Shown: in pieces, positions 1 to 49,120 of the stretch
Numbering within the stretch: the first letter of the stretch is position 1
How the letters are laid out: every line of letters begins with the position of its first letter
Assembly: GCF_963921235.1 (NCBI RefSeq)
Contig: NC_086108.1
Span: forward strand, 31,188,001-31,252,000
Direction of reading: 5' to 3'
Length of the DNA stretch: 64,000 bases
From: Mobula hypostoma
Lineage: Eukaryota
Notes under the pieces: generated by a model
What the model was told of the DNA's origin: nothing
What the model saw: only the letters and a program-made list of their open reading frames with translations
Database searches by the model: none
Made by a program: the position numbers and the translations under genes

Positions 1-3000
1 TCACCTCCCAGTTTCTCACGTTATCCCCCGTCCCTCTCACCTTGTCTCATATATCACCTCCAAGTTTCTCACGTTATCCCCGGTCCCCCTCACCTGCTCT
101 CATATATCACCTCCCAGTTTCTCACCTTATTCCCGCATCCCCCTCACCTCGTCTCATATATCACCTCCCAGTGTCTCACGTTATCCCCCGTCCCCCTCAC
201 CTGGTCTCATATATCACCTCCCATTTTCTCACGTTATCTCCCATCCCCCTCACCTGATCTCATATATCACCTCCCAGTTTCTCACCTTATCCCCCGTCCC
301 CCTCACCTGTTCTCATATATCACCTCCCAGTTTCTCACGTTATCCCCCGTCCCTCTCACCTTGTCTCATATATCACCTCCAAGTTTCTCACGTTATCCCC
401 GGTCCCCCTCACCTGCTCTCATATATCACCTCCCAGTTTCTCACCTTATTCCCCGTCCCCCTCACCTGGTCTCATATATCACCTCCCATTTTCTCACGTT
501 ATCTCCCATCCCCCTCACCTGGTCTCATATATCACCTCCCCGTTTCTCAAGTTATCCCCCATTCCCCTCGCCCGGTCTCATATATCACCTCCCAGTTTCT
601 CACATTTCCCCCATCCCCTTCACCTCGTCTCATATATCACTTCCCAGTTTCTCACGTTATCCCCCAACCCCCTCACCTGGTCAAATATATCACCTCCCAA
701 TTTCTCACCTTATTCCCCCATCCCCCTCTCCTGGTCTCATATATCACCTCCCAGTTTCTCACGTTATCCACCATCCCCCTCACCTGGTCTCATATATCAC
801 CTCCCAGTTTCTCACCTTATCCCCCATCCCCCTCACCTGGTCTCATATATCACTTCCGGTTTCTCACCTTATCCCCCATCTCCGTCACGTGGTCTCATAT
901 ATAACCTCCCAGTTTCTCACGTTATCCCCCATCCCCCTCACCCGGTCTCATAAATCACCTCCCGGTTTCTCACCTTATCCCCCATCCCCGTCACGTGGTC
1001 TCATATATCACCTCCCAGTTTCTCACGTTATCCCCCATCCCCCTCACCTGGTCTCATATATCACCTCCCAGTTTCTCAGGTTATCCCGCATCTCCCTCAC
1101 CTGGTCTCATATATCACTTCCTAGTTTCTCACGTTATCCACCAACCCCCTCACCTCATCTCATATATCACCTCCCAGTTTCTCACTTTATCCCCCATCCC
1201 CCTCACCTGTTCTCATATATCACCACCCAGTTTCTCACGTTATCCCGCATCCCCCTCACCTGGTCTTATATATCACATCCCAGTTTCTCACCTTATCCCC
1301 CATCCCCCTCACCTCGTCTCATATATCACTTCCCAGTTTCTCACGTTATCCCCCATCCCCCTCACCTGGTCTCATATATCACCTCCCAGTTTCTCATGTT
1401 ATCGCCCATCCCCATCACCTCATCTCATATATCACCTCCCCGTTTCTCACGTTATCCCCCATCCACCTCACCTGGTCTCATATATCACCTCCCGGTTTCT
1501 CACCTTATCCCCCATCCCCCTCACCTGCTCTCATACATCACCTCCCAGTTTCTCACGTTATACCCCATCCCCCTCACCTGGTCTCATATATCACCTCCCA
1601 GTTTCTCACGTTATCCCCCATCCCCCTCACTCGGTCTCATGTATCACCTCCCAGTTTCTCACGTTATCCCCCATCCCCCTCACTCGGTCTCATATATCAC
1701 CTACCAGTTTCTCACCTTATCCCCCAACCCCCTCACCTCATCTCATATATCACTTCACAGTTTCTCATCTTATCCCCCATACCCCTCACGCGGTCTCATA
1801 TATCACCTCCCAGTTTCTCACGTAATCCCCCATCCCCATCACCTGGTCTCATATATCACCTACCAGTTTCTCACCTTATCCCCCATCCCCCTCACCTCAT
1901 CTCATATATCACTTCACAGTTTCTCATCTTATCCCCCATCCCCCTCACCCGGTCTCATATATCACCTCCCAGTTTCTCACCTTATCCCCCATCCCCCTCA
2001 CCTGGTCTCATATATCACCTCCCAGTTTCGCACGTTATCCCCCATCCCCCTCACTCGGTCTCATATATCACCTACCAGTTTCTCATCTTATCCCCCATAC
2101 CCCTCACCCGGTCTCATATATCACCTCCCAATTTCTCACGTTATCCCCCATCCCCATCACCTGGTCTCAATTATCACTTCGCAGTTTCTCACCTTATCCC
2201 CCATCCCACTGACCTCGTTTCATATATCACTTCACAGTTTCTCACCTTATCCCTCGTCACCCTAACCCGGTCTCATACATCACCTCCCAGTTTCTCACGT
2301 TATCCACCGACCCCCTCACCTGGTCTCATATATCACCTCCCAGTTTCTAACATTATCCCCCATCCCCCTCACCTGTTCTCATATATCACCTCCCAGTTTC
2401 TCACCTTATCCCCCGTCCCCCTCACCTGTTCTCATATATCACCTCCCAGTTTCTCACGTTATCCCCCGTCCCTCTCACCTTGTCTCATATATCACCTCCA
2501 AGTTTCTCACGTTATCCCCGGTCCCCCTCACCTGGTCTCATATATCACCTCCCAGTGTCTCACGTTATCCCCCGTCCCCCTCACCTGGTCTCATATATCA
2601 CCTCCCATTTTCTCACGTTATCTCCCAGCCCCCTCACCTGGTCTCATATATCACCTCCCCGTTTCTCAAGTTATCCCCCATTCCCCTCGCCCGGTCTCAT
2701 ATATCACCTCCCAGTTTCTCACCTTTCCCCCATACCCTTCACCTCGTCTCATATATCATCTCCCAGTTTCTCACCTTATTCCCGCATCCCCCTCACCTCG
2801 TCTCATATATCACCTCCCAGTGTCTCACGTTATCCCCCGTCCCCCTCACCTGGTCTCATATATCACCTCCCATTTTCTCACGTTATCTCCCAGCCCCCTC
2901 ACCTGGTCTCATATATCACCTCCCCGTTTCTCAAGTTATCCCCCATTCCCCTCGCCCGGTCTCATATATCACCTCCCAGTTTCTCACCTTTCCCCCATCC

Positions 3001-6000
3001 CCTTCACCTCGTCTCATATATCACTTCCCAGTTTCTCACGTTATCCCCCAACCCCCTCACCTGGTCAAATATATCACCTCCCAATTTCTCACCTTATTCC
3101 CCCATCCCCCTCACCTGGTCTCATATATCACCTCCCAGTTTCTCACATTATCCCCCATCCCCCTCACCTGGTCTCATATATCACCTCCCAGTTTCTCACC
3201 TTATCCCCCATCCCCCTCACCTGGTCTCATATATGACCTCCCGGTTTCTCACCTTATCCCCCATCTCCGTCACGTGGTCTCATATATCACCTCCCAGTTT
3301 CTCACGTTATCCCCAATACCCCTAACCCGGTCTCATAAATCACCTCCCGGTTTCTCACCTTATCCCCCATCCCCGTCACGTGGTCTCATATATAACCTCC
3401 CAGTTTCTCACGTTATCCCCCGTCCCCCTCACCTGGTCTCATATATCACCTCCCAGTTTCTCACTTTATCCCCCATCCCCCTCACCTGTTCTCATATATC
3501 ACCACCCAGTTTCTCACGTTATCCCGCATCCCCCTCACATGGTCTTATATATCACATCCCAGTTTCTCACCTTATCCCCCATCCCCCTCACCTCGTCTCA
3601 TATATCACTTCCCAGTTTCTCACGTTATCCCCCATCCCCCTCACCTGGTCTCATATATCACCTCCCATTTTCTCACGTTATCTCCCATGCCCCTCACCTG
3701 GTCTCATATATCACCTCCCCGTTTCTCACGTTATCCCCCATCCCCTTCGCCCGGTCTCATATATCACCTCCCAGTTTCTCAAGTTATCCCCCATCCCCCT
3801 CACTAGGTCTCATGTATCACCTCCCAGTTTCTCACGTTATCCCCCATCCCCCTCACTCGGTCTCATATATCACCTACCAGTTTCTCACCTTATCCCCCAA
3901 CCCCCTCACATCATCTCAAATATCACTTCACAGTTTCTCATCTTATCCCCCATACCCCTCACCCGGTCTCATATATCACCTCCCAGTTTCTCTCGTAATC
4001 CCCCATCCCCATCACCTGGTCTCATATATAACCTACCAGTTTCTCACCTTATCCCCCATCCCCCTCACCTCATCTCATATATCACTTCACAGTTTCTCAT
4101 CTTATCCCCCATCCCTCTCGCCCGGTCTCATATATCACCTCCCAGTTTCTCACCTTATCCCCCATCCACCTCACCTGGTCTCATATATCACCTCCCGGAT
4201 TCTCACCTTATCCCCCATCCCCCTCACCTGCTCTCATACATCACCTCCCAGTTTCTCACGTTTTCCCCCGTCCCCCTCACCTGGTCTCATATATCACCTC
4301 CCAGTTTCTCACGTTATCCCCCATCCCCCTCACTCGGTCTCATATATCACCTTCCAGTTTCTCACCTTATCCCCCATCCCCCTCACCTCATCTCATATAT
4401 CACTTCACAGTTTCTCATCTTATCCCCCATACCCCTCACCCGGTCTCATATATCACCTCCCAGTTTCTCACGTTATACCCCATCCCCCTCACCTGGTCTC
4501 ATATATCACCTCCCAGTTTCTCACGTTATCACCCATCCCCCTCACTCGGTCTCATGTATCACCTCCCAGTTTCTCACGTTATCCCCCATCCCCCTCACTC
4601 GGTCTCATATATCACCTACCAGTTTCTCACCTTATCCCCCAACCCCCTCACCTCATCTCATATATCACTTCACAGTTTCTCATCTTATCCCCCATACCCC
4701 TCACGCGGTCTCATATATCACCTCCCAGTTTCTCACGTAATCCCCCATCCCCATCACCTAGTCTCATATATCACCTACCAGTTTCTCACCTTATCCCCCA
4801 TCCCCCTCACCTCATCTCATATATCACTTCACAGTTTCTCATCTTATCCCCCATCCCCCTCGCCCGGTCTCATATATCACCTCCCAGTTTCTCACTTTAT
4901 CCCCCATCCCCCTCACCTGGTCTCATATATCACCTCCCAGTTTCGCACGTTATCCCCCATCCCCCTCACTCGGTCTCATATATCACCTACCAGTTTCTCA
5001 TCTTATCCCCCATACCCCTCACCCGGTCTCATATATCACCTCCCAATTTCTCACGTTATCCCCCATCCCCATCACCTGGTCTCAATTATCACTTCACAGT
5101 TTCTCACCTTATCCCCCATCCCACTGACCTCGTTTCATATATCACTTCACAGTTTCTCACCTTATCCCTCATCCCCCTAACCCGGTCTCATACATCACCT
5201 CCCAGTTTCTCACGTTATCCACCGTCCCCCTCACCTGGTCTCATATATCACCTCCCAGTTTCTAACATTATCCCCCATCCCCCTCACCTGTTCTCATATA
5301 TCACCTCCCAGTTTCTCACCTTATCCCCCGTCCCCCTCACCTGTTCTCATATATCACCTCCCAGTTTCTCACGTTATCCCCCGTCCCTCTCACCTTGTCT
5401 CATATATCACCTCCAAGTTTCTCACGTTATCCCCGGTCCCCCTCACCTGGTCTCATATATCACCTCCCAGTGTCTCACGTTATCCCCCGTCCCCCTCACC
5501 TGGTCTCATATATCACCTCCCATTTTCTCACGTTATCTCCCAGCCCCCTCACCTGGTCTCATATATCACCTCCCCGTTTCTCAAGTTATCCCCCATTCCC
5601 CTCGCCCGGTCTCATATATCACCTCCCAGTTTCTCACCTTTCCCCCATCCCCTTCACCTCGTCTCATATATCACCTCCCAGTTTCTCACCTTATTCCCGC
5701 ATCCCCCTCACCTCGTCTCATATATCACCTCCCAGTGTCTCACGTTATCCCCCGTCCCCCTCACCTGGTCTCATATATCACCTCCCATTTTCTCACGTTA
5801 TCTCCCAGCCCCCTCACCTGGTCTCATATATCACCTCCCCGTTTCTCAAGTTATCCCCCATTCCCCTCGCCCGGTCTCATATATCACCTCCCAGTTTCTC
5901 ACCTTTCCCCCATCCCCTTCACCTCGTCTCATATATCACTTCCCAGTTTCTCACGTTATCCCCCAACCCCCTCACCTGATCAAATATATCACCTCCCAAT

Positions 6001-9000
6001 TTCTCACCTTATTCCCCCATCCCCCTCACCTGGTCTCATATATCACCTCCCAGTTTCTCACGTTATCCACCATCCCCCTCACCTGGTCTCATATATCACC
6101 TCCCAGTTTCTCACCTTATCCCCCATCCCCCTCACCTGGTCTCATATATGACCTCCCGGTTTCTCACCTTTTCCCCCATCTCCGTCACGTGGTCTCATAT
6201 ATCACCTCCCAGTTTCTCACGTTATCCCCCATACCCCTAACCCGGTCTCATAAATCACCTCCCGGTTTCTCACCTTATCCCCCATCCCCGTCACGTGGTC
6301 TCATATATAACCTCCCAGTTTCTCACGTTATCCCCCGTCCCCCTCACCTGGTCTCATATATCACCTCCCAGCTTCTCACGTTATCCCGCATCTCCCTCAC
6401 CTGGTCTCATATATCACTTCCTAGTTTCTCACGTTATCCACCAACCCCCTCACCTCATCTCATATATCACCTCCCAGTTTCTCACTTTATCCCCCATCCC
6501 CCTCACCTGTTGTCATATATCACCACCCAGTTTCTCACGTTATCCCGCATCCCCCTCACCTGGTCTTATATATCACATCCCAGTTTCTCACCTTATCCCC
6601 CATCCCCCTCACCTCGTCTCATATATCACTTCCCAGTTTCTCACGTTATCCCCCATCCCCCTCACCTGGTCTCATATATCACCTCCCAGTTTCTCATGTT
6701 ATCGCCCATCCCCATCACCTTATCTCATATATCATCTCCCAATTTCTCACGTTATCCCCCATCCCCCTCACCTGGTCGCATATATCACCTCCCATTTTCT
6801 CACGTTATCTCCCATGCCCCTCACCTGGTCTCATATATCACCTCCCCGTTTCTCACGTTATCCCCCATCCCCTTCGCCCGGTCTCATATATCACCTCCCA
6901 GTTTCTCACGTTATCCCCCATCCCCCTCACTCGGTCTCATGTATCACCTCCCAGTTTCTCACGTTATCCCCCATCCCCCTCACTCGGTCTCATATATCAC
7001 CTACCAGTTTCTCACCTTATCCCCCAACCCCCTCACCTCATCTCAAATATCACTTCACAGTTTCTCATCTTATCCCCCATACCCCTCACCCGGTCTCATA
7101 TATCACCTCCCAGTTTCTCTCGTAATCCCCCATCCCCATCACCTGGTCTCATATATCACCTACCAGTTTCTCACCTTATCCCCCATCCCCCTCACCTCAT
7201 CTCATATATCACTTCACAGTTTCTCATCTTATCCCCCATCCCCCTCGCCCGGTCTCATATATCACCTCCCAGTTTCTCACCTTATCCCCCATCCACCTCA
7301 CCTGGTCTCATATATCACCTCCCGGATTCTCACCTTATCCCCCATCCCCCTCACCTGCTCTCATACATCACCTCCCAGTTTCTCACCTTTTCCCCCGTCC
7401 CCCTCACCTGGTCTCATATATCACCTCCCAGTTTCTCACGTTATCCCCCGTCCCCCTCACCTGGTCTCATATATCACCTCCCGGTTTGTCACCTTATCTC
7501 CCATCCCCATCACCCCGTCTCATATATCACTTCAGAGTTTCTCACCTTATCCCCCATCCCCCTCACCCGGTCTCTAATATCACCTCCCAGTTTCTCACCT
7601 TATCCTCCATCCCCCTCACCTCGTCTCATAAAACACTTCCCAGTTTCTCACGTTATCCCCCATCCCCGTCACCCGGTCTCATATATCACCTCCAAGTTTC
7701 TCACCTTATCCCCCATCGCCCTCACCTGGTCTCATGTATCACCTCCCTGTTTCTCACCTTATCACCAATCCCCCTCACCTCGTCTCATATATCACCACCC
7801 AGTTTCTCACGTAATCCCTCGTCCCGCTCACCTGGTCTAATTTATCACCTCCCAGTTCCTCACGTTATCCCCCATCCCCCTCACCTGATCTCATATATAT
7901 CCTCCCGGTTTCTCACCTTATCCCCCATCCCCCTCACCTCATCTCAGATAGCACTTCACAGTTTCTCACCTTATCCAACATCCCCCTCACCCGGTCTCAT
8001 ATATCACCTCCCAGTTTCGCACCTTATCCCGCATCCCCCTCACCTCGTCTCATCTATCACTTACCAGTTGCTCACGTTATCCCCCATCCCACTCACCTGG
8101 TCTCATATATCACCTCCCCTTTACTCACGTTATCCCCCATCCCCCTCACCTGGTCTCATAGATCACCTCCCAGTTTGTCACGTTATCCCCATCCCCTTCA
8201 CCTCGTCTCATATATCACTTCCCAGTTTCTCACGTTATCCACCATCCCCCTCACCTGGTCTCATATATCACCTCCCAGTTTCTCACATTATCCCCCATCC
8301 CCCTCACCTCATCTCATATATCACCTCCCAGTTTCTCACGTTATCCCCCATTGCCCTCACCTGGTCTCATTTATCACCTCCAAGTTTCTCACCTTACCCC
8401 CATCCCCATCACTCGTCTCATATATCACTTCCCAGTTTCACACGTTATCCCCCATCCCCCTCACCTGGTCTCATATATCACCTCCCAGTTTCTCATTTTA
8501 TCCCCCATCCCCCTCACCTCATCTCATATATCACCTCCCGGTTTCTCACGTTATCCCCCATCCCCCTCACCTCATCTCATATATCACCTCCCAGTTTCTC
8601 AACTTATCCCCCATCCCCCTCACCTGGTCTCATATATCACCTCCCGGATTCTCACCTTATCCCCCATTCCCCTCACCCGGTCTCATAAATCACCTCCCAG
8701 TTTCTCACCTTATCCCCCGTCCCGCTCACCTGGTCTCATAGATCACCTCCCAGTTTCTCACGTTATCCCCTATCCGCCTCACCCGGTCTCATATATCACC
8801 TCCCAGTTTCTCACGTTATCCCCCATTGCCCTCACCTGGTCTCATTTATCACCTCCCAGTTTCTCACCTTACCCCCATCCCCCTCACTCGTCTCATATAT
8901 CACTTCCCAGTTTCACACGTTATCCCCCATCCCCCTCACCAGGTCTCATATATCACCTCCCAGTTTCTAATTTTATCCCCCATCCCCCTCACCTCATCTC

Positions 9001-10432
9001 ATATATCACCTCCCGGTTTCTCACGTTATCCCCCATCCCCCTCACCTCATCTCATATATCACCTCCCAGTTTCTCAACTTATCCCCCATCCCCCTCACCT
9101 GGTCTCATATATCACCTCCCGGATTCTCACCTTATCCCCCATTCCCCTCACCCGGTCTCATAAATCACCTCCCAGTTTCTCACCTTATCCCCCATCCCCC
9201 TCACCTCGTCTCATATATCACTTCCCAGTTTCTCACGTTATCCCCCATCCCCGTCACCCCGTCTCATATATCACCTCCAAGTTTTTCACCTTATCCCCCA
9301 TCCCCCTCACCTGGTCTCATGTATCACCTCCCAGTTTCTCACCTTATCCCCCATCCCCCTCACCTCGTCTCATATATCACCTCCCAGTTTCTCACGTTAT
9401 CCCCCGTCCCGCTCACCTGGTCTCATAGATCACCTCCCAGTTTCTCACGTTATCCCCTATCCGCCTCACCCGGTCTCATATATCACCTCCCAGTTTCTCA
9501 CCTTATCCCCATCCCCTTCACCTCGTCTCATATATCACTTCCCAGTTTCTCACGTTATCCACCCTCCCCCTCACCTGGTCTCATATATCACCTCCCAGTT
9601 TCTCACGTTATCCCCCATCTCCCTCACCTCATCTCATATATCACCTCCCATTTTATCACGTTATCCCACATCCCACACTCCTGGTCTCATATATCACCTC
9701 CCAGTTTCTCACGTTATCCCCCATCCCTCTCACCTGGTCTCATATATCACTTCCTAGTTTCTCACGTTATCCCCCATCCCCCTCACCTCATCTCATATAT
9801 CACCTCCCAGTTTCTCACGTTATCCCCCATCCCCCTCACCTGGTCTCATAGATCACCTCCCAGTTTCTCACGTTATCCCCCATCCCCCTCACATGTTCTC
9901 ATATATCACCTCCCAGTTTTTCACGTTATCCCCCATCCCCGTCACCTGGTCTCATATATCACTTCCAAGTTTCTCACGTTATCTCCCATCGCCGTCACCT
10001 CATCTCATATATCACCTCCCAGTTTCTCACGCTATCCCCCATCCTCCTCACCTGGTCTCATTTATCACCTCCCAGTTTCTCACGTTACCCGCACCCCCTC
10101 ACCTGGTCTCAAATATCACTTCCCTGTTTCTCACGTTATCCCCCATCCCCCTCACCTGGTCTCATTTATCACCTCCCCGTTTCTGATTTTATCCCCCATC
10201 CCCCTCACCTCATCTCATATATCACCTCCCAGTTTCTCCCGTTATCCCCCATCCCCCTCACCTGGTCTCATATATCACTTCCCGGTTTCTCACCTTATCC
10301 CCCATCCCCCTCACCCGGTCTCATAAATCACTTCCCAGTTTCTCACGTTATCCCCCGTCCCGCTCACCTGGTCTCATATATCACCTCCCAGTTCCTCACG
10401 TTATCCCCCATCCCCCTCACCTGGTCTCATAT
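1..10432. repeat. 53-bp tandem satellite, left block (runs off the window's left edge)
   Basis: Consensus monomer read directly: TCACCTCCCAGTTTCTCACGTTATCCCCCATCCCCCTCACCTGGTCTCATATA (53 nt), repeated head-to-tail with scattered substitutions and occasional 1-nt indels. Confidence 0.98.
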
Positions 10433-11097
10433 TCGAAGAAGGAGTCTGAGAGTCTGAGTGGGAGTGCCGAGAAAGAGATTTTTGAAATTTTCGTTATTTT
10501 TTTTCTCCAACGGCTTTCTGAGAGGCGGGACTGCGCAGGCGTGTGACGTCGGGCAGTGCAGCGCGGCAGATTTAAAAGGGCAGACATCCTGCTTCGGATT
10601 TGATTCGAAGAAGGAGTCTGAGAGTCTGAGTGGGAGTGCCGAGAAAGAGATTTTTGAAATTTTCGTTATTTTTTTTTCTCCAACGGCTTTCTGAGAGGCG
10701 GGACTGCGCAGGCGTGTGACGTCGGGCAGTGCAGCGCGGCAGATTTAAAAGGGCAGACATCCTGCTTCGGATTTGATTCGAAGAAGGAGTCTGAGAGTCT
10801 GAGTGGGAGTGCCGAGAAAGAGATTTTTGAAATTTTCGTTATTTTTTTTCTCCAACGGCTTTCTGAGAGGCGGGACTGCGCAGGCGTGTGACGTCGGGCA
10901 GTGCAGCGCGGCAGATTTAAAAGGGCAGACATCCTGCTTCGGATTTGATTCGAAGAAGGAGTCTGAGAGTCTGAGTGGGAGTGCCGAGAAAGAGATTTTT
11001 GAAATTTTCGTTATTTTTTTTTCTCCAACGGCTTTCTGAGAGGCGGGACTGCGCAGGCGTGTGACGTCGGGCAGTGCAGCGCGGCAGATTTAAAAGG
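10431..11097 (+). promoter_or_regulatory. Four tandem ~172-bp CpG-rich monomers forming the LINE 5' UTR, putative promoter array
   Basis: ATTCGAAGAAGG starts at 10431, 10603, 10776 and 10948. Copies differ only in a T-run (8,9,8,9). Each has GAGGCGGGAC (GC-box-like), TGCGCAGGCG (NRF1-like), TGACGTC (CRE-like) and TTTAAAAG (TATA-like). The repeat is seen directly; promoter function is inferred. Confidence 0.8.
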
Positions 11098-11259
11098 AAC
11101 AAAGCCTCATAGAGCGGGCAGCGTAGTTTGCGGGCGGCGGAGTGAGCCGGGAGCAGAGTGAAGACTTAAGGGCTTCGGCTCAACGGGCTTAGGCGGAAGC
11201 GGGCGAGGCGAGGAAGGTTTGACATTCATTTTCTGTTGCTATTTGAGGAGAGGGGCATT

Positions 11260-12195
11260 ATGACTGTGAGGGCAGTTTGCTGTTCTCGGTGTCGGATGTG
11301 GGAGGCCCTGGAGTCTCCAAGCCTCCCGGACGTCTACATCTGCGCCAAGTGCATCGAGATGCAGCTCCTAAGGGACCGCGTTACGGAACTGGAGCTGCAG
11401 CTCGATGACCTTCGTCTGGTCAGGGAGAGCGAGGAGGTGATAGAGAGGAGTGGAAGGCAGGTGGTCACGCCGGGGCCACGGGAGGCAGACAAGTGGGTCA
11501 CGGTTAGGAGAGGGAAGGGGAAAAGGCAGGTGATGAGGAGTACCCCGGCGGCTGTGCCCCTTAACAACAGGTACTCCTGTTTGAGTACTGTTGGGGGGGA
11601 CAGCTTACCCGGGGGAAGCGACAGTGGCCCTGCCTCCGGCACAGAGTCTGGCCCTGTAGCTCAGAAGGGTAGGGCAAGGAAGAGGAGGGCAGTTGTGATA
11701 GGGGACTCGATAGTAAGGGGGTCAGATAGGCGATTCTGTGGACGCAGTCCAGAGACTCGGATGGTAGTTTGCCTCCCTGGTGCCAGGGTCCGGGATATTT
11801 CTGATCGTGTCCAAGATATCCTGAAGTGGGAGGGTGAAGAGCCAGAGGTCCTGGTACATATAGGTACCAATGACATAGGTAGGAAAAGGGATGAGGTCCT
11901 GAAAGAAGAATATAGGGAGCTAGGAAGGGAGTTGAGAAAAAGGACCGCAAAGGTAGTAATCTCGGGATTACTGCCTGTGCCACGCGACAGTGAGAGTAGG
12001 AATGCGATGAGGTGGAGGATAAATGCGTGGCTGAGGGATTGGAGCAGGGGGCAGGGATTCAAGTTTTTGGATCATTGGGACCTCTTTTGGCGTAGGTGTG
12101 ACCTGTACAAAAAGGACGGGTTACACTTAAATCCTAGGGGGACCAATATCCTGGCAGGGAGATTAGCGGGGGCTACTGAGGTGACTTTAAACTAG
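11260..12195 (+). CDS. CR1 ORF1p: N-terminal CxxC...CxxC zinc finger, leucine-zipper coiled coil, SGNH/GDSL esterase domain
   Basis: The ORF track opens at TTG 11236; the first ATG is at 11260. Motifs: CSRC...CAKC, LLRDRVTELELQLDDL, and SGNH blocks VIGDSIVRG, LPGARV, HIGTNDI, DGLHLN. Confidence 0.93.
   Translation: MTVRAVCCSRCRMWEALESPSLPDVYICAKCIEMQLLRDRVTELELQLDDLRLVRESEEVIERSGRQVVTPGPREADKWVTVRRGKGKRQVMRSTPAAVPLNNRYSCLSTVGGDSLPGGSDSGPASGTESGPVAQKGRARKRRAVVIGDSIVRGSDRRFCGRSPETRMVVCLPGARVRDISDRVQDILKWEGEEPEVLVHIGTNDIGRKRDEVLKEEYRELGRELRKRTAKVVISGLLPVPRDSESRNAMRWRINAWLRDWSRGQGFKFLDHWDLFWRRCDLYKKDGLHLNPRGTNILAGRLAGATEVTLN
12186..12195 (+). other. Putative -1 programmed ribosomal frameshift site (T_TTA_AAC followed by the ORF1 stop TAG)
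   Basis: ORF1 codons read ACT TTA AAC TAG. The -1 frame TTT AAA CTA GAA TGG TTG... is continuous with ORF2. The same arrangement occurs in the older CR1 at 42374-42383 (- strand). Confidence 0.65.
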
Positions 12196-12200
12196 AATGG

Positions 12201-15200
12201 TTGGGGGGTGGGAATCAAATTAAAGCAGCTAGGTGTGAGGAGGTTAGTTCACAACAGAGGGATGGGAACCAGTGCAGAGAGACAGAGGGGTGTAAAGTGA
12301 GCGTAGAAGCAAAAAGTACAAAGGGGAAAAGTAAAAGTGGCAGGCCGACAAATCCAGGGCAAGCATTAAAAAGGGCTAAGAGAGTTGTAAAAGAGCGCCT
12401 GAAGGCTTTATGTGTCAATGCAAGGAGCATTCGTAATAAGGTGGATGAATTGAAAGTGCAGATTGTTATTAATGATTATGATATAGTTGGGATCACAGAG
12501 ACATGGCTCCAGGGTGACCAGGGATGGGAGCTCAACGTTCAGGGATATTCAATATTCAGGAGGGATAGACATGAAGGAAGGGGAGGTGGGGTGGCGTTGC
12601 TGGTTAAAAAAGAGATTAACGCAATAGAAAGGAAGGACATAAGCCGGGAAGATGTGGAATCGATATGGGTAGAGCTGCATAACACTAAGGGGCAGAAGAC
12701 GCTGCTGGGAGTTGTGTACAGGCCACCTAACAGTAGTAGTGAGGTCGGAGATGGTATTAAACAGGAAATTAGAAATGTGTGCAATAAAGGAACAGCAGTT
12801 ATAATGGGTGACTTCAATCTACATGTAGACTGGGTGAACCAAATTGGTAAAGGTGCTGAGGAAGAGGATTTCTTGGAATGTATGCGGGATGGTTTTTTGA
12901 ACCAACATGTCGAGGAACCGACTAGAGAGCAGGCTATTCTGGACTGGGTTTTGAGCAATGAGGAAGGGTTAATTAGCGATCTTGTCGTGAGAGGCCCCTT
13001 GGGTAAGAGTGACCATAATATGGTGGAATTCTTCATTAACATGGAGAGTGACGTAGTTAATTCAGAAACAAAGGTTCTGAACTTAAAGAGGGGTAACTTT
13101 GAAGGTATGAGACATGAATTAGCTAAGATAGACTGGCAAATGACACTTCAAGGATTGACGGTGGATATGCAATGGCAGGCATTTAAAGGTTGCATGGATG
13201 AACTACAACAATTGTTCATCCCAGTTTGGCAAAAGAATAAATCAAGGAAGGTAGTGCACCCGTGGCTGACAAGAGAAATTAGGGATAGTATCAATTCCAA
13301 AGAAGTAGCATACAAATTAGCCAGAGAAAGTGGCTCACCTGAGGACTGGGAGAAATTCAGAGTTCAGCAGAGGAGGACAATGGGCTTAATTAGGAAGGGG
13401 AAAAAAGATTATGAGAGAAAACTGGCAGAGAACATAAAAACGGACTGTAAAAGCTTTTATAGATATGTAAAAAGGAAAAGACTGATAAAGACAAATGTAG
13501 GTCCCCTGCAAACAGAAACAGGTGAATTGATTATGGGGAGCAAGGACATGGCAGACCAATTGAATAATTACTTTGGTTCTGTCTTCACTAAGGAGGACAT
13601 AAATAATCTTCCAGAAATAGTAAGGGACAGAGGGTCCAGTGAGATGGAGGAACTGAGCGAAATACATGTTAGTAGGGAAGTGGTGTTAGGTAAATTGAAG
13701 GGATTGAAGGCAGATAAATCCCCAGGGCCAGATGGTCTGCATCCCAGAGTGCTTAAGGAAGTGGCCCAAGAAATAGTGGATGCATTAGTGATAATTTTTC
13801 AAAACTCGTTAGATTCTGGACTAGTTCCTGAGGATTGGAGGGTGGCTAATGTAACCCCACTTTTTAAAAAAGGAGGGAGAGAGAAACCGGGGAATTATAG
13901 GCCGGTTAGCCTAACGTCGGTGGTGGGGAAACTGCTGGAGTCAGTTATCAAGGATGTGATAACAGCACATTTGGAAAGCGGTGAAATGATCGGACAAAGT
14001 CAGCATGGATTTGTGAAAGGAAAATCATGTCTGACGAATCTCATAGAATTTTTTGAGGATGTAACTAGTAGAGTGGATAGGGGAGAATCAGTGGATGTGG
14101 TATATTTGGATTTTCAAAAGGCTTTTGACAAGGTCCCACACAGGAGATTAGTGTGCAAACTTAAAGCACATGGTATTGGGGGTAAGGTATTGGTGTGGGT
14201 GGAGAATTGGTTAGCAGACAGGAAGCAAAGAGTGGGAATAAACGGGACCTTTTCAGAATGGCAGGCGGTGACTAGTGGGGTACCGCAAGGCTCAGTGCTG
14301 GGACCCCAGTTGTTTACAATATATATTAATGACTTGGATGAGGGAATTAAATGCAGCATCTCCAAGTTTGCGGATGACACGAAGCTGGGCGGCAGTGTTA
14401 GCAGTGAGGAGGATGCTAAGAGGATGCAGGGTGACTTGGATAGGTTGGGTGAGTGGGCAAACTCATGGCAGATGCAATTTAATGTGGATAAATGTGAAGT
14501 TATCCACTTTGGTGGCAAAAATAGGAAAACAGATTATTATCTGAATGGTGGCCGATTAGGAAAAGGGGAGGTGCAACGAGACCTGGGTGTCATTATACAC
14601 CAGTCATTGAAAGTGGGCATGCAGGTACAGCAGGCGGTGAAAAAGGCGAACGGTATGCTGGCATTTATAGCGAGAGGATTCGAGTACAGGAGCAGGGAGG
14701 TACTACTGCAGTTGTACAAGGCCTTGGTGAGACCACACCTGGAGTATTGTGTGCAGTTTTGGTCCCCTAATCTGAGGAAAGACATCCTTGCCATAGAGGG
14801 AGTACAAAGAAGGTTCACCAGATTGATTCCTGGGATGGCAGGTCTTTCATATGAAGAAAGACTGGATGAACTGGGCTTGTACTCGTTGGAATTTAGAAGA
14901 TTGAGGGGGGATCTGATTGAAACGTATAAGATCCTAAAGGGATTGGACAGGCTAGATGCGGGAAGATTGTTCCCGATGTTGGGGAGGTCTAGAACGAGGG
15001 GTTACAGTTTGAGGATAGAGGGGAAGCCTTTTAGGACCGAGATTAGGAAAAACTTCTTCACACAGAGAGTGGTGAATCTGTGGAATTCTCTGCCACAGCA
15101 AACTGTTGAGGCCAGTTCATTAGCTATGTTTAAAAGGAAGTTAGATATGGACCTTGTGGCTACAGGGGTCACGGGGTATGGAGGGAAGGCTGGGTTCTGA
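12201..15200 (+). CDS. CR1 ORF2p: apurinic-like endonuclease plus reverse transcriptase (frame open from 12180; no ATG until 12804)
   Basis: EN motifs NARSI, GITETW, VYRPP, MGDFN, SDHN. RT motifs KSPGPDG, NYRPVSLTS, QHGF, YLDFQKAFDKV, GVPQGSVLGP, FADD. No stops or frameshifts over ~1000 codons. Confidence 0.97.
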   Translation: MGGGNQIKAARCEEVSSQQRDGNQCRETEGCKVSVEAKSTKGKSKSGRPTNPGQALKRAKRVVKERLKALCVNARSIRNKVDELKVQIVINDYDIVGITETWLQGDQGWELNVQGYSIFRRDRHEGRGGGVALLVKKEINAIERKDISREDVESIWVELHNTKGQKTLLGVVYRPPNSSSEVGDGIKQEIRNVCNKGTAVIMGDFNLHVDWVNQIGKGAEEEDFLECMRDGFLNQHVEEPTREQAILDWVLSNEEGLISDLVVRGPLGKSDHNMVEFFINMESDVVNSETKVLNLKRGNFEGMRHELAKIDWQMTLQGLTVDMQWQAFKGCMDELQQLFIPVWQKNKSRKVVHPWLTREIRDSINSKEVAYKLARESGSPEDWEKFRVQQRRTMGLIRKGKKDYERKLAENIKTDCKSFYRYVKRKRLIKTNVGPLQTETGELIMGSKDMADQLNNYFGSVFTKEDINNLPEIVRDRGSSEMEELSEIHVSREVVLGKLKGLKADKSPGPDGLHPRVLKEVAQEIVDALVIIFQNSLDSGLVPEDWRVANVTPLFKKGGREKPGNYRPVSLTSVVGKLLESVIKDVITAHLESGEMIGQSQHGFVKGKSCLTNLIEFFEDVTSRVDRGESVDVVYLDFQKAFDKVPHRRLVCKLKAHGIGGKVLVWVENWLADRKQRVGINGTFSEWQAVTSGVPQGSVLGPQLFTIYINDLDEGIKCSISKFADDTKLGGSVSSEEDAKRMQGDLDRLGEWANSWQMQFNVDKCEVIHFGGKNRKTDYYLNGGRLGKGEVQRDLGVIIHQSLKVGMQVQQAVKKANGMLAFIARGFEYRSREVLLQLYKALVRPHLEYCVQFWSPNLRKDILAIEGVQRRFTRLIPGMAGLSYEERLDELGLYSLEFRRLRGDLIETYKILKGLDRLDAGRLFPMLGRSRTRGYSLRIEGKPFRTEIRKNFFTQRVVNLWNSLPQQTVEASSLAMFKRKLDMDLVATGVTGYGGKAGF

Positions 15201-15298
15201 GTTGGATGATCAGCCATGATCATAATAAATGGCGGTGCAGGCTCGAAGGGCCGAATGGCCTACTCCTGCACCTATTTTCTATGTTTCTATGTTTCTAT
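15201..15298 (+). other. CR1 3' UTR with stem-loop and 8-bp terminal repeats
   Basis: GGTGCAGG...CCTGCACC inverted repeat encloses GGCC-GAAT-GGCC, followed by TTTCTATG TTTCTATG TTTCTAT; typical CR1 3' end. Confidence 0.85.
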
Positions 15299-28130: not shown

Positions 28131-30080
28131 CTTCAAGAGGCTATATGGGTAGAATTACAAATAGAAGGGAGTAACCTCTCGGATGGGATTATACCACAGA
28201 CCATCCAAATGGCAGTGGGAATTAAAGGTGCAATTGCGTATGGATATCACAGATTGCTGTGGGAACAATAGCGGTATAATAGTAGGTGATTTTACTTTCC
28301 TTAGTATTAACTGGGACTGCAATAATGCCAAGGGATTCGATGAGGCAGAATTTGTTAAGTAAGTCCAGGAAAGTTTTCTCAAGCAATATGTAGAGAAAGG
28401 GCAACTCTGGGCCTCCTATTCATAAATGAGGCAGGGCAAGTTGCTGGAGGTGTCTGTCAAGTGTCAACTTGGGAACAGTGACCATGATTCTATCAATGTT
28501 AAAACAGTTATGGAAAGAGATAGGACTGCCCCATGAGTTAAACTGGCAGAGACTTTGAATGACTATTTTGTGCCGGTCTTCATGGTAGAGGACATGTCTA
28601 ACATGCCAAAGAGAGATGTGATGGATGTGATGGGAGGTGAGAATCTCGATACAATAGGTATCATTAAAGAGGTAGTGCTGGGCAAACTTGTCGGCCTGAA
28701 GATAAATAAGAACCCTGGTGCTGGTGGGATGCATCCCAGGGTACTGAAAGAAATGGCAGAAGTTATAGTAGAGCTTTGGTGATAATTTACCAAAATTCTC
28801 TAGACTCTGGGCAGGTCCCGGCGGATTGGAAGATGATGAATGTCACGCTACTGTACAAAAACAGTATGTAGGTAAAAGGGAGGTAACTATTGGCCAGTTA
28901 GTTTAACAGCTGTAGTTGGGAAAATGCTTGAAGCTATCGTTAAAGAACAAATAGCAAGACATCTGGAAAGAAATGGATCCATCAGACAGACGCAGCATGG
29001 ATTCAGCAAAGGCAGGTCCTGTTTGACAAACTTACTGGAGTTCTTTGGAGTGCAGTAGATAGAGGGGAACAGATGGATGATATTTACTTGGATTTTGATA
29101 AGGTGCAGCATAAAAGACTTATCCATAAGTTAAGGATTCATAGAGTTGGGGTGATGTATCAGCATGGATAGAGGATTGGTTAGAAAGTAGAAAGTTGGGA
29201 TACATGGGTGTTTCTCTGATTGGCACTCAGTGGTGAGCTGTGTGCCACAGGGGTCAGTGCTGGGCCTGCAACTGTTCACGATATACATTAATGATCTGGA
29301 AGAGGGGACCGAGTGTAGTGCATCTAAGTTTACTGATGATACTAAATTGAGCAGAAAAGCAAATTGTGCAGAAGATAGGAAGAGTCCGCAGAGAGATATC
29401 AATAGGTTAAGTGAGTGGGCAAGGGTCTGGCAGATGGAGTGCAATATTGGTAAATGTGAGGTCATCCACTTTGGAAGGAAAAATGGAAAAGCAGATTATT
29501 ATTTAAATGGTATAAAATTGCAGCATGCTGCTGTAGAGAGGGACTTGGGAGTACTTGTGCATGAATCACAAAAGGTTGGTTTGCAGGTGCAGCAGGCTGT
29601 CAAGAAGGCAAATGGAATGTTGGCCTTCATTGCTCGAGGGATTGAATTTAAGAGCAGAGAGATTATGCTGCAACTGTACAGGGTACTAGTCAGGCCGCAC
29701 CTGGAGGACCGCATGCAGTTCTGGTCTCCTTGCTTGAGGAAGGATATACTCTCTTTGGAGGCAGTGCAGAGGAGGCTCACCAGGTTGATTCCAGAGATGA
29801 GGGAGTTAGAGTATGAGGAAAGATTGAGTTGCCTGGGATTGTACCCGCTGGAATTCAGAAGAATGAGAGAAAATCTTATAGAAACATATAAAATTATGAG
29901 AGGGGTAGATAAGATAGAGGCAAGTAAGTTGTTTCCACTGGTAGGTCAGACTAGAACTAGGGGACATAGCCTCAGGGAATAGATTTAGGACTGAGATGAG
30001 GAGCAACTGCTTCTCCCAGAGAGTGGTGAATCTGTGGAATTCTCTGCCCAATAAAGCAACGGAGACTACCTCAGTAAATA

Positions 30081-37360: not shown

Positions 37361-39247
37361 AAATGTTGAGAAAATTCCAGGGCCACATTCTAAATAAAGG
37401 GTTTAGCCAAGCTTGAATGCATTCACTTTTCTTAAAAAGTCGATACCGGCCTTAGTTTTGAAAGATTATTATTTAGACAAATGAATGATTAAAGCTCCTT
37501 CTGAGCTGTTTGTTCAGGTCACCTCTGATCTGGAATTTCTAGGTCACTGACCAGCTGACACCTTACAGCAATCAAACCATTCTAGTTCTGATCGAAACAC
37601 ACAGGAGAATGTCATGTCTACCCTCCACCAACCTCCATGGCAGATGCAAACTCTGTATGCCACTTTGAGCAGGATCCAAGCAGAACCCTTTCAGTACATG
37701 GTCCAGCACCTAATGGGTTTATTTTACTGAAGTTAACATTCATTTGAAGCATTCCAAATGAATAGTAGGCCTGTAGGCAATAGATGCTCACCATGCCAAA
37801 AGGAGATGAAATCCAAATTCTAAGCACCAGAGTATTTACAATCCAGCACGTGCAGCCTCTTTTAGTTACATAATTGATGCAAGGTGACCACTGCTGAATC
37901 GCTCTCTTGTTTCTTAGTCAGGGGTTCTGAGTTCAAGTCCCTCATCAGAGACTTCACTAGCACTACTTTGAAGAACAAAGTACAGTGTCAGATGTTCCAT
38001 ATTTTGGAAAAACCATTAGACTGACATCCTTGCTGCTCTTTGAAGTGCAAAGGTTAATTTCTGAGATTAATTTGAAGAACAGTGTTTGTCTAGTGCAACA
38101 AAGAATCTGCTGGAGTACACAGCGGGTCAAGTTCCTCCTACAAATTGTTTGTTGTTCCAGGTTCCAGCATCTGTAGTCTCTTGTGTCTCCAATTTTTACC
38201 TGCTGCTTGGCCTCTACCAATCCCAGGTGCCAACACCACAACAGATTACCTGGCCATTTTTGGTTTGTGGATTCTTCTCTTTCCTAAATGAACTTTGAAT
38301 TGTTAGCACCTTCCTGAAGGAGGCATGAAGCTTCCCTAAGGAACAAAGTCTTTCCCATATATTTTTGTGTTTTTTAGACCATAAGACATAGGGGTGGAGT
38401 TAGGGTATTCGGACCATTAAGCCTCCTCTGCCATTCCATCATGGCTGATTTATTATCCCTCTAACTCCATTCTGCTGTCTTCTCCCCATATTCTTTGTCT
38501 CTTTGACCAATCAAAAACCTATCAACCTCTGTTTTAAAATATTATCAAAGACTTGGTTTCCAGAGCCATCTGTGGCAATGAATTCCATAGATTCACGACC
38601 CTCTGGCTAAGTAAATTCCTCCTCTTCTCTGTTCTCAATGGATACCCCTCTATTCTGAAGCTGTGCCCTCAGGCCCTAGACTCACCCACTGTAGGAAACA
38701 TCCTCTCCACATTCACTATATCTATGTCTTTCAATATTCGGTAGGTTAAAATGAGATTCCTGCTCATCCTTCTAAACTCCAGTGAGTACAGGCTCAGAGC
38801 CATCAAGCACTCCTCATACATTAACCCTTTCACTTTTGAAATCATTCTTTGCACCTCACCAATGCCAGCACATCTTTTCTTAGACAAGGGCCCCAAAACT
38901 GCTCCACAATACTGCAAATGCAGTCTGACCAATGCCCTATAAAGCCTCAGCACTGCATCCTTACTCTTATGTTCTAGTTCTCTCAAAATGAATGCTAATA
39001 TTGTTTTTGCCTTTCTTACCACTGACTCAACCTGCAAGTTAACCTTTAGGGAATATTGCATGAGGACTCCCAAGTGCCTTGGCACATCAGATTTGTCAAT
39101 ATTCTTAGAAAATAGTCTATGCCTTTATTCCTTCTACCAAAGTGCATGACCATACACTTCCCCTCACTATATTCCATCTGGCATTTTCTTGCCCCTTCTC
39201 CCACCTTGCTTCCTCAACACTACCTGCCCCTCTATCTATCTCAGTGT

Positions 39248-46631: not shown

Positions 46632-49120
46632 CATTCCCAAGAAGAATGTGGTAAATCTACAAAGGTACCTCAATGACTGTCATCCAGTAGCACTTACATC
46701 TACTGTGTTGAATTGCTTTGAGAGCTTGATTATGAAACATATCAGCTCCTGCCTGGGTTGAGTCAGAAACATTCATATCGTGACCCGGTTAATCCAAAAG
46801 GAGACCAATCCTGACACCACACGCCAGACAAGAATGGCTGACTGTCTGGTGCGACACGCTAAAACAAAACTCCTGCCCATGGAGTGATTTGGATCCACTC
46901 CAATTTGCCTACCGCCACAGCAGATCAACAGCAGATGCCATTTGTACCATATACAACCCTGAGATATATTTTCTAGCGGATATACTCAATGAATCTATGA
47001 TAGAATAATAACCCTAACAGAATCAGTGAAAGGCTGGACTAACTTGGGCATTTAACCAGTGTGCAGAAGAACGCTATCATCTCCTCAAAACTAATCAATA
47101 AGCTCCAAGACCTAGTCCTCAATTCCTCCTTGTGTAACTGGATCCTCAATTTCCTCACTTGTAGACCCCAGTGTGTTTGGACTGGCAACAACGTCTCCAC
47201 AATCTCTGCCAGCATAGGTGCACCTCAAGGCTGTGTGCTTAGCTCTCTAATCTACTTACTTTATACTTATGACTGTGAGGCTAAATATAGCTCCAATGGC
47301 ATATTTAAGATTGCTGATGACACCTCTGTTGTTGGCCATATCAAAGGTTCTAATGAATCAGCATATAGGAGGGAGATTGTAAACCTAGCTGAATTGTGCC
47401 ACAACAACAACCTCTTACTCAATGTCAGCAAAACCAAAGAAATGATGATTGATGACAGGAGGGAAAAAACGGAGGTCCACGAGCCAGTCTTCATCAGGGG
47501 ATCAGAAGTGGAGAGAGTCAGCAACTTTAAATTCCTATGCGTATTAATATCAGAGGGTCTGTCCAGGGTCCCGCACATAACTGCCATAACCAAGAAGGCA
47601 TGGCAGCACCTCTACTTTCTTAGCAGTTTGTAAAGATCTGACATGATATCTAAAACTTTAGCAAACTTCCATAGATGCATAATGGAGAGTACGCTGAATG
47701 GTTGCGACACTGCCTGACATGGGAATACCGCTGCCCTTTGATGGGAAAACCTACAAAACGTGGCCGATTCAGCCCAGTCCAACATGGGTAAAGCCCTGCC
47801 CACCACTGAGTACAATAACAAGAAGCGCTGTCGCAGGAAAGCAGCATCCACCATCAGGGACCCCCACCATCCAGGCCATATTCTCTTCTCACTTTTGCCA
47901 TCAAGAAGTAGATACAGTCGGCCCTCCTCATCCGCGAGTTCTGCATGCGCGAGTTCAATCAACCGTGAATCGAGAAAACCCGGAAGTGCTCTTCCAGCAC
48001 TTGTTGTTTGAGCATGTACAGACTTCTTTTCCTTGTCATTATTCCCTAAACAATGCAGTATAACAACTATTTTACATAGCATTTACGCTGCATTAGGTAT
48101 TATAAGTAATCTAGAGGTGATTTAAAGTATACGGGAGGATGTGCGTAGGTTATTGTGGATCAGGATGGAAAAAAAACAGAAGTTCTCTTAATAAGTAAGT
48201 CGGAACAGGTACATCCAGTACTATTTAGCATCAGTTAGTCAAACGTTTGTCTTAGTATATAATATATATTTTACCTTTCTATGCATATAAAACACTTAAG
48301 AAACGTATGTTTCAGCGCCGGGCTCGGGAGCAGAAATTCCCAAGTTCGATCCAGTGACAGACCGCTCCCGAGCGTGCTCTCCATCTGTGCCGGGTTGATG
48401 TAGAGGATCAAAAACCCAAAACCCCAAAACCCAATAACTAAACCACTGTGTTGCTTAGTAATAATTGTAGTTTTAATCGGGGCAGGGCCTTTCTCACTTT
48501 ATCCTTTAAAATTGTGCCGATTGTTGACTGAGTATAGCCTAATGCTTTTCCAATGACCGATGGTGTTTCGCCTCTTTCTGATCGCTTTATTATTTCCACT
48601 TCATTTTCAATCGTGATCGTGATTCTTTTCGTGAACAGAAACACTGCGGATTCAGAGCTCCACCATCGGGTCCTAATGTCCACCGCACTGAAACAGGTTA
48701 AATAAGGTCCAGGGTTCTGCTGGGTCCTAAGATCCACTGCATTCAGACAGGTTGAATAAGGGACTTGAGCATCCGTGTTTTTTGATATCTGCGAGGGGTC
48801 CCGGAACCAATCCCTCGCAGATATGGAGGGCCGACTGTACATGAGCCTCAGACCCCACAACGCCAGGTTCTGGAACAGTTATTGCCCTTAACTATCGGGT
48901 TTTTGAACCAGAGGGGACAATTTTGCTGAACTTCCAGACCTATGGACTCACTTCCAAGGACTCTACAACTTATGTTCTCGATATTTATTACTTGTTTATT
49001 ATTATTATTATTATTGTTTCTTTGCGCATAGGTTGTTTGTCTGCTTTGTTATGCACAGTCTTTCATTAATTCTATTGTGTTTATTTTTATTTACTATGAA
49101 TATCCACAAGAAGATGACAT
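46632..49120 (+). mobile_element. Decayed Rex1/Babar-type LINE (RT to 3' UTR) with nested insertions
   Basis: [54 protein letters not shown]; split by a Tigger element and smaller inserts. Confidence 0.8.
47915..48837 (-). mobile_element. Tigger/pogo-family non-autonomous DNA transposon
   Basis: TA duplication; ~24-bp TIR CAGTCGGCCCTCC..ATC.GCGAG at both ends; minus-strand CENP-B-like HTH remnant KRITITIENEVEIIKRSERGETPSVIGKALG...STIGTILK. Confidence 0.88.

Follow-up and report, generated by a model that had tools for sequence, protein, structure and literature searches.

How the second open reading frame (ORF2) of long interspersed nuclear elements (LINEs) is translated is called an open question in a review, and the mechanisms given in reviews are translational coupling, reinitiation or an internal ribosome entry site (statements on the literature refer to the covered portions of each source). 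This report concerns the junction between ORF1 and ORF2 of a CR1-type LINE found in a 64,000-nucleotide stretch of DNA from Mobula hypostoma (NCBI RefSeq assembly GCF_963921235.1, contig NC_086108.1, positions 31,188,001 to 31,252,000 of the forward strand; hereafter the window, numbered from its first letter). In most vertebrate species, according to the literature, the CR1 group is the dominant retrotransposon. SART1 and L1 share with CR1 a bicistronic RNA, and their ORF2 depends on translation of ORF1; the CR1 junction differs in having neither a UAAUG-type overlap nor an in-frame AUG, and the predicted ORF2 protein would be fused rather than separate. For the TRE5-A and TRE3-A elements of Dictyostelium, which are non-LTR retrotransposons (lacking long terminal repeats, LTRs) with an apurinic/apyrimidinic-type endonuclease (APE), a −1 frameshift is stated to be needed for ORF2 (PMC5911963), so that −1 frameshifting in a LINE has precedent. 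These elements belong to another lineage and host, no esterase was noted in their ORF1, and no slip-site sequence or test was found for them (the word 'frameshift' is absent from PMC3159450).

Frameshifting is also in print for other retroelements without LTRs, namely some two-ORF Penelope-like elements (PMC8557442) and Drosophila HeT-A (PMC5009743). The former differ from CR1 in their GIY-YIG endonuclease and in the pseudoknot noted for them, and in HeT-A the shift lies within gag and there is no reverse transcriptase (RT). Retroviral and LTR gag-pol and coronavirus 1a/1b signals resemble the CR1 junction in having an X_XXY_YYZ heptamer in the 0-frame, the polymerase in the −1 frame and a minimal overlap (PMC7618472), and UUUAAAC is an efficient slip site (PMC3919603). 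No frameshift in CR1 was found in the literature searched, and an earlier mention is possible (Haas 1997, Kajikawa 1997, Alisch 2006, Kapitonov and Jurka 2003, Repbase and Dfam lay outside the coverage); the word 'frameshift' is absent from the covered parts of PMC13343379, PMC3894237, PMC3905857, PMC4120745 and PMC2881922, and 'CR1' from the two thirds of PMC5009743 covered.

The ORF1-ORF2 junction and its relatives in the genome

ORF1 of the element ends in U_UUA_AAC followed directly by the stop codon, and ORF2, which has no start codon of its own, lies in the −1 frame, an arrangement in which a minority of ribosomes is likely to slip back by one base. Judged from the sequences, an ORF1-ORF2 fusion is very probably made by programmed −1 frameshifting at the end of ORF1. 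Such a signal had been proposed in a first-pass annotation of the window, and its coordinates hold on recomputation (Table 1): the heptamer stands in exact ORF1 phase just before the stop codon, the ORF2 frame is open only from downstream of the TGA that precedes the heptamer, the first ATG of that frame (12804) falls in mid-endonuclease (GTAVI-M-GDFN), and the ATG behind the ORF1 stop codon is out of frame and opens eight codons. The length given for the fusion, 1313 residues (311 codons plus the 1002 that run from 12192 up to the stop codon of ORF2), was arithmetically correct. T_TTA_AAC is the sole X_XXY_YYZ heptamer in ORF1 phase within ORF1.

In the proposed mechanism, tRNA-Leu and tRNA-Asn of a ribosome at UUA AAC would slip in tandem to UUU AAA and CUA would be decoded next, giving the junction ...VTLN-LEWLGGGNQ, after which the linker, the endonuclease and the RT would follow. 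The slipped minority would yield the 1313-residue fusion of zinc finger, esterase, endonuclease and RT, the majority would stop and release the ORF1 protein, and a low slip rate would give a high ratio of ORF1 protein to RT, as gag-pol does. Because the CR1 LINE has neither capsid nor protease, the fusion would be expected to stay uncut. A stop codon directly after the heptamer is also seen in some viruses (Rous sarcoma virus and barley yellow dwarf virus). The slippage, its rate and its stimulator are what we infer from the observed anatomy, nucleotide conservation, fixed −1 phase and open linker. If the frameshift is real, the working enzyme of two-ORF CR1 elements would be a fusion of about 1300 residues that carries the esterase and the zinc finger, and not a free-standing ORF2 protein; the annotation of intact CR1 copies would change (ORF finders begin ORF2 inside the endonuclease), as would the design of a CR1 mobilisation assay. 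The signal would then rank among the oldest −1 frameshift signals of animal genomes and among the most widespread, and its stimulator would be unusual and apparently unstructured.

The first-pass annotation had pointed to the run of six G residues at 12203-12208, since copies with five would bring the ATG at 12197 in frame with ORF2. Six were found in 30 of the 30 closest copies, the window's own included, and in 56 of 61 copies of the family (one had seven, three a substitution in the run, one was unmatched and none had five). In public data, runs X19 and X9 each provide one contig, of uncertain kind, that spans the junction without gaps. An assembly artefact hiding a five-G run is ruled out by the sister copies.

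Relatives were collected at 218 loci by DNA, Pfam, protein and pattern searches of the genome, the junction being placed from the DGLH motif of the esterase. Clustering and visual inspection assigned most of them to ten families; the sample is weighted to the family of the window (family A). TTTAAAC followed by TAA or TAG was present at 178 of the 218 loci and TTTAAAC alone at 9, with neither at 31. The first 30 matches of a pattern free of the junction comprised 23 with exact TTTAAAC and stop, two with the heptamer only and five others. A degenerate pattern for the end of the esterase matched the genome 13,858 times versus 0 for the reversed control.

The mean identity among the nine families compared was 60% for the esterase and 51% for the endonuclease (short alignments were dropped, 30 and 32 of 36 pairs being kept, respectively). 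TTA, AAC and the preceding third-position T were kept in all ten families, and the T, whose synonymous position had been singled out in the first-pass annotation, is invariant while its codon covers six different residues. Other columns of the esterase domain in nine families were used as controls, not as independent trials, because the families share ancestry and synonymous sites are unsaturated: a single codon was kept in 7 of 41 invariant-residue columns and one third base in 2 of 27 variable columns. The ORF1 codon background was 102 TTA among 657 Leu codons and 97 AAC among 292 Asn codons. Family J (two copies, one in phase 0) was excluded from the nine-family linker and codon controls.

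Five of the ten families have TAG as the ORF1 stop codon after the heptamer and five have TAA, which bears on a possible joining of the frames at the RNA level, either by splicing, with TTTAAACTAG as branch point and splice acceptor, or by polymerase slippage in the A3 and G6 runs. CTAG is acceptor-like, and G runs are unstable among genomic copies, several of which are fused in frame upstream of the heptamer. The splice-acceptor reading is contradicted by half of the families, whose stop codon TAA contains no AG, and a polypyrimidine tract is lacking. T3 and A3 runs are short for polymerase slippage, and loss of one G from the G6 of family A would use an ATG that other families lack, so that joining at the RNA level is considered hardly credible. 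In L093, L104 and L113 (family C), L128 (family D) and L129 (family G), an indel in a G run just upstream of the heptamer joins ORF1 and ORF2 in frame; such sporadic joins may be real mutations or homopolymer errors.

A variable ORF2 phase, named beforehand as contrary evidence, was not what the families displayed. In the nine families with at least five copies, the modal distances from the ORF1 stop codon to the endonuclease were 203/230, 134, 302, 119, 173, 134, 122, 188 and 119 nt, all 2 mod 3 and thus in −1 phase. Single copies with a measurable linker, decayed ones included, were in −1 phase in 138 of 174 cases, in +1 in 22 and in 0 in 14. At the column mode of the nine families, stop codons are absent from the linker's −1 frame and number 1-10 in each of the 0 and +1 frames, the chance of an open linker frame being 0.001-0.08 per family. 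Upstream of the heptamer the −1 frame closes within 3-15 nt in nine of ten families; it is therefore kept open from the slip site on and not before. Family A (L001-L060) has two main linker lengths, 203 and 230 nt, which differ in frame by 27 nt, and the window's copy belongs to the near-identical subfamily with the shorter linker.

These linkers are also where termination-reinitiation or translational coupling, the mechanism given in reviews for LINE ORF2 and known from SART1 and L1, would have to act, with a restart at a near-cognate codon (for example TTG at 12201) or at a linker ATG. Near-cognate codons are present, three of nine families have a linker ATG, and a restart near the stop codon is also compatible with an open −1 linker. 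Reinitiation leaves unexplained the invariant TTA, AAC and synonymous T as well as the −1 phase fixed over linkers of 119-302 nt. Nor is there a common start codon: an in-frame ATG is missing from the linkers of families A, B, D, F and G, an ATG directly after the ORF1 stop codon occurs in family A alone among the ten and is out of frame there, and the codon at the position of TTG 12201 varies among families. We regard reinitiation as improbable.

Junctions in other vertebrates and in distant homologues

Of the 120 ORF1 homologues listed, 74 combine a DGxH motif with a tail of 25-32 residues; LN is the C-terminal dipeptide in 71 of them, and IN, VN and GN in the others (among the matches listed). 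The proteins ending in LN include some whose records name sharks, rays, coelacanth, frogs, turtles, squamates or a hummingbird. P0036, P0057 and P0121 read through as ..FKL.., which is the −1 reading of TTT AAA CT. A search of longer proteins for natural full-length fusions gave five matches, of which only P0121, a weak case, links esterase and endonuclease, via ..GGFKL... Two CR1-like ORF1 proteins, P0022 and P0083, are recorded under a bacterium and a flatworm; host-DNA contamination is the probable source, the other being horizontal transfer in the parasite. DNA of relatives from outside the genome was sought in metagenome, viral and prokaryote collections, which yielded two loci and no more (L061, bacterial antiporter-like genes, and L240, from a bacterial metagenome-assembled genome).

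Nucleotide evidence from other vertebrates was obtained from the CR1-group consensus rows in the supplement of PMC13343379, the first 400 letters of each row being covered. The motif TTTAAAC-TAR gave 23 matches there, made up of 16 CR1 rows in which it is read as lying at the junction, one ambiguous Crack row and six elsewhere. The species codes of the 16 rows are interpreted as chimaera, sharks, rays, bowfin, coelacanth, bullfrog, alligator and crocodile. When the rows were instead queried by the upstream DGLH codons, 15 matches were obtained, eight of them at the end of the esterase; the junction is visible in seven and all seven carry the motif. A lizard row reads TTTAAAC-TGA. The conservation of TTTAAAC-stop that the first-pass annotation had proposed to look for is thus present at visible junctions from chimaera to crocodilians.

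A profile search of representatives at 50% identity extended the comparison to distant homologues. Of 134 new proteins 125 were examined, and 75 combined the motif with a tail of 24-40 residues. At the protein level, the only one compared, a slippery heptamer can encode the final dipeptide of 51 of these (LN in 41, GN in 8 and KN in 2), versus an internal background of 4.9%. GN- or KN-type heptamer motifs at a junction were not found in the covered part of the PMC13343379 supplement. In five distant esterase ORF1 proteins (P0189, P0208, P0220, P0225 and P0253), KN stands near the usual end and is followed by a few more residues, as would happen with a shift site placed upstream of the stop codon.

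The protein termini also bear on the view that the heptamer is a by-product of a C-terminal Leu-Asn needed by the ORF1 protein and of inherited codons, ORF2 being made in some other way. Asn311 is invariant and Leu310 nearly invariant in 48 aligned proteins, and the 7 of 41 control columns cited above likewise keep a single codon. Such a by-product would leave the preceding T, which sits in a codon for six different residues, without an explanation; TTA and AAC are minority codons, yet they are kept from chimaera to crocodilians; in distant homologues the final dipeptide is LN, GN or KN, with tails of 24-39 residues; and the alignment to the solved esterase stops nine residues short of the C-terminus. 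This view is accordingly held to be very improbable.

The region downstream of the heptamer

The first-pass annotation had described a G-rich tract about 5 nt downstream of the heptamer. The tract is present, but the part shared by the families starts 10 nt after the heptamer, at 12203. Its motif, GGGGG-NN-GGGA, occupies positions +11 to +21, of which 12-15 and 18 are G in ten of ten families, and in seven of the ten families most copies have the run starting exactly 10 nt after the heptamer. The alligator and crocodile consensus rows have a similar G-rich motif at similar spacing (PMC13343379). The first Gly codon of the G-x-G-N peptide encoded here in the −1 frame is GGG in all ten families, whereas among the 93 Gly codons of ORF2 in the window 29 are GGG.

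In the −1/−2 frameshift of nonstructural protein 2 (nsp2) of PRRSV, the virus that causes porcine reproductive and respiratory syndrome, an unstructured, protein-bound C-rich motif acts across a 10-nt spacer (PMC4937337). The CR1 motif also lies 10 nt from the shift site, a likeness by analogy only: the PRRSV motif is C-rich and bound by nsp1beta and PCBP, and that of CR1 is G-rich with a hypothetical binder. It is conceivable, at somewhat short of an even chance, that ribosomes would pause at a protein bound to the unstructured G-rich motif, aided by the adjacent stop codon, and not at a pseudoknot.

Several results weigh against a programmed frameshift at the CR1 junction. The usual −1 signal has a structure 5-9 nt downstream (PMC7618472); in this respect CR1 differs from the gag-pol and coronavirus signals, as no stable hairpin or pseudoknot was found at that distance (pseudoknots lie outside the modelling, and the stretch is C-poor). 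The 120 nt after the heptamer in the window fold like shuffled sequences (z = 0.05), and among 30 elements a local fold with z < −2 was seen in just 2, both members of a single family. The G tract's pairing with the 3' tail, although −21.1 kcal/mol in the window, was rejected, being no better than with shuffled probes (mean z 0.09, n = 24); the tail arm is already engaged in the local 3' hairpin, and 6 of 30 elements have no tail match. A conserved G-quadruplex was rejected as well, the two-tier pattern being common in only 2 of 10 families. The G-rich motif encodes the conserved G-x-G-N peptide, so its constraint may be at the protein level. The linker has an in-frame ATG in families C, E and H and in one of the two copies of family I, where ordinary initiation or re-initiation is possible. 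Out of phase were 36 of the 174 copies, which are read as decayed. One catshark consensus row (PMC13343379) has TTTAAAC with no stop codon after it, 24 of the 75 distant homologues end in dipeptides encoded by no heptamer, and the relatedness of the families, noted above, applies to all comparisons among them.

As no downstream structure was found, the junction is not placed in the structure-stimulated class of −1 frameshift signals. What it has of the general class are the in-phase heptamer, the open −1 downstream ORF without its own start (with an ATG in the linkers of three of nine families) and conservation at a synonymous site; a conserved motif at a longer, fixed spacer is a feature that it shares with the protein-stimulated type, as in PRRSV and cardioviruses. 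As far as comparison of sequences can tell, the junction is a real, strongly conserved recoding signal, like that of gag-pol, yet one that fails the RNA-structure test of the classical class. More tentatively still than for the pause, it may be that canonical CR1 elements have made their RT as a Gag-Pol-like fusion since before the split of sharks and bony vertebrates, using U_UUA_AAC-stop with a protein stimulator on the G motif (a host G-tract binder or feedback by the ORF1 protein), and that related esterase LINEs would use G_GGA_AAC or A_AAA_AAC.

The element and its surroundings

A 3' hairpin and a microsatellite tail without poly(A) are marks of CR1, and the features of the element (APE and RT in ORF2, SGNH esterase in ORF1 and the 3' end) fit a canonical CR1 by their sequence (Table 1). 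An SGNH esterase ORF1 is named among canonical CR1 features in PMC13343379, and the junction region resembles rows labelled CR1 in its supplement. The N-terminus of ORF1 has a CxxC-x16-CxxC arrangement, read directly in the sequence and with no Pfam call. Among the matches listed, a devil ray protein is the nearest named ORF1, with 98% identity. The family is young and abundant, with 995 first-look candidates in the genome, and all 40 that were scored were at 100% identity.

Table 1. Positions of the CR1-type LINE and of its parts in the window.
Feature	Position	Strand	Remarks
Intact young CR1-type LINE	10431-15298	+	inserted into 53-bp satellite array
5' untranslated region (UTR), tandem monomers	10431-11097	+	173 bp x 3.9, 99% matches
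ORF1, 311 residues	11260-12195	+	ATG 11260, TAG 12193-12195; ends ACT TTA AAC TAG, C-terminal Leu-Asn
SGNH/GDSL esterase domain in ORF1	11695-12141	+	PF13472, E = 2.9e-16; PDB 4c1b (ORF1-encoded protein), E = 6.7e-29
TGA closing the ORF2 (−1) frame	12177-12179	+	6 nt upstream of heptamer
Slippery heptamer T_TTA_AAC, ORF1 phase	12186-12192	+	predicted −1 shift site
ORF1 stop codon TAG, directly 3' of heptamer	12193-12195	+	
Out-of-frame ATG mini-ORF	12197-12223	+	8 codons, MVGGWESN-stop, +1 frame
G-rich motif GGGGG-NN-GGGA	12203-12213	+	starts 10 nt after heptamer; candidate stimulator
Charged linker, −1 frame	12192-12395	+	68 codons, without ATG; between slip site and endonuclease
ORF2 frame	12180-15200	+	APE endonuclease ~12396-13025, reverse transcriptase 13875-14528; PF03372, PF14529, PF00078
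3' UTR	15201-15298	+	predicted hairpin 15234-15272, TTTCTATG repeat tail, without poly(A)

Each 173-bp monomer of the 5' UTR contains a TTTAAAA box, and the start of the LINE falls within a monomer. The 53-bp satellite around the element is C/T-rich (extreme GC skew, about −0.73) and covers about 21 kb (window 1-10432 and 15297-~26200). At the insertion there is at most a 2-4-base AT overlap and no clear target duplication. Differing 3' tails were seen within single ORF1 families (L211 versus L228-L230; L236 versus L237-L239; L226), a pattern suggestive of recombination among CR1 families or of template switching between them. Further RT-like open frames in the window, at 29191-29982 (+), 38669-39124 (−) and 47043-47633 (+), are probably fragments of older LINEs.

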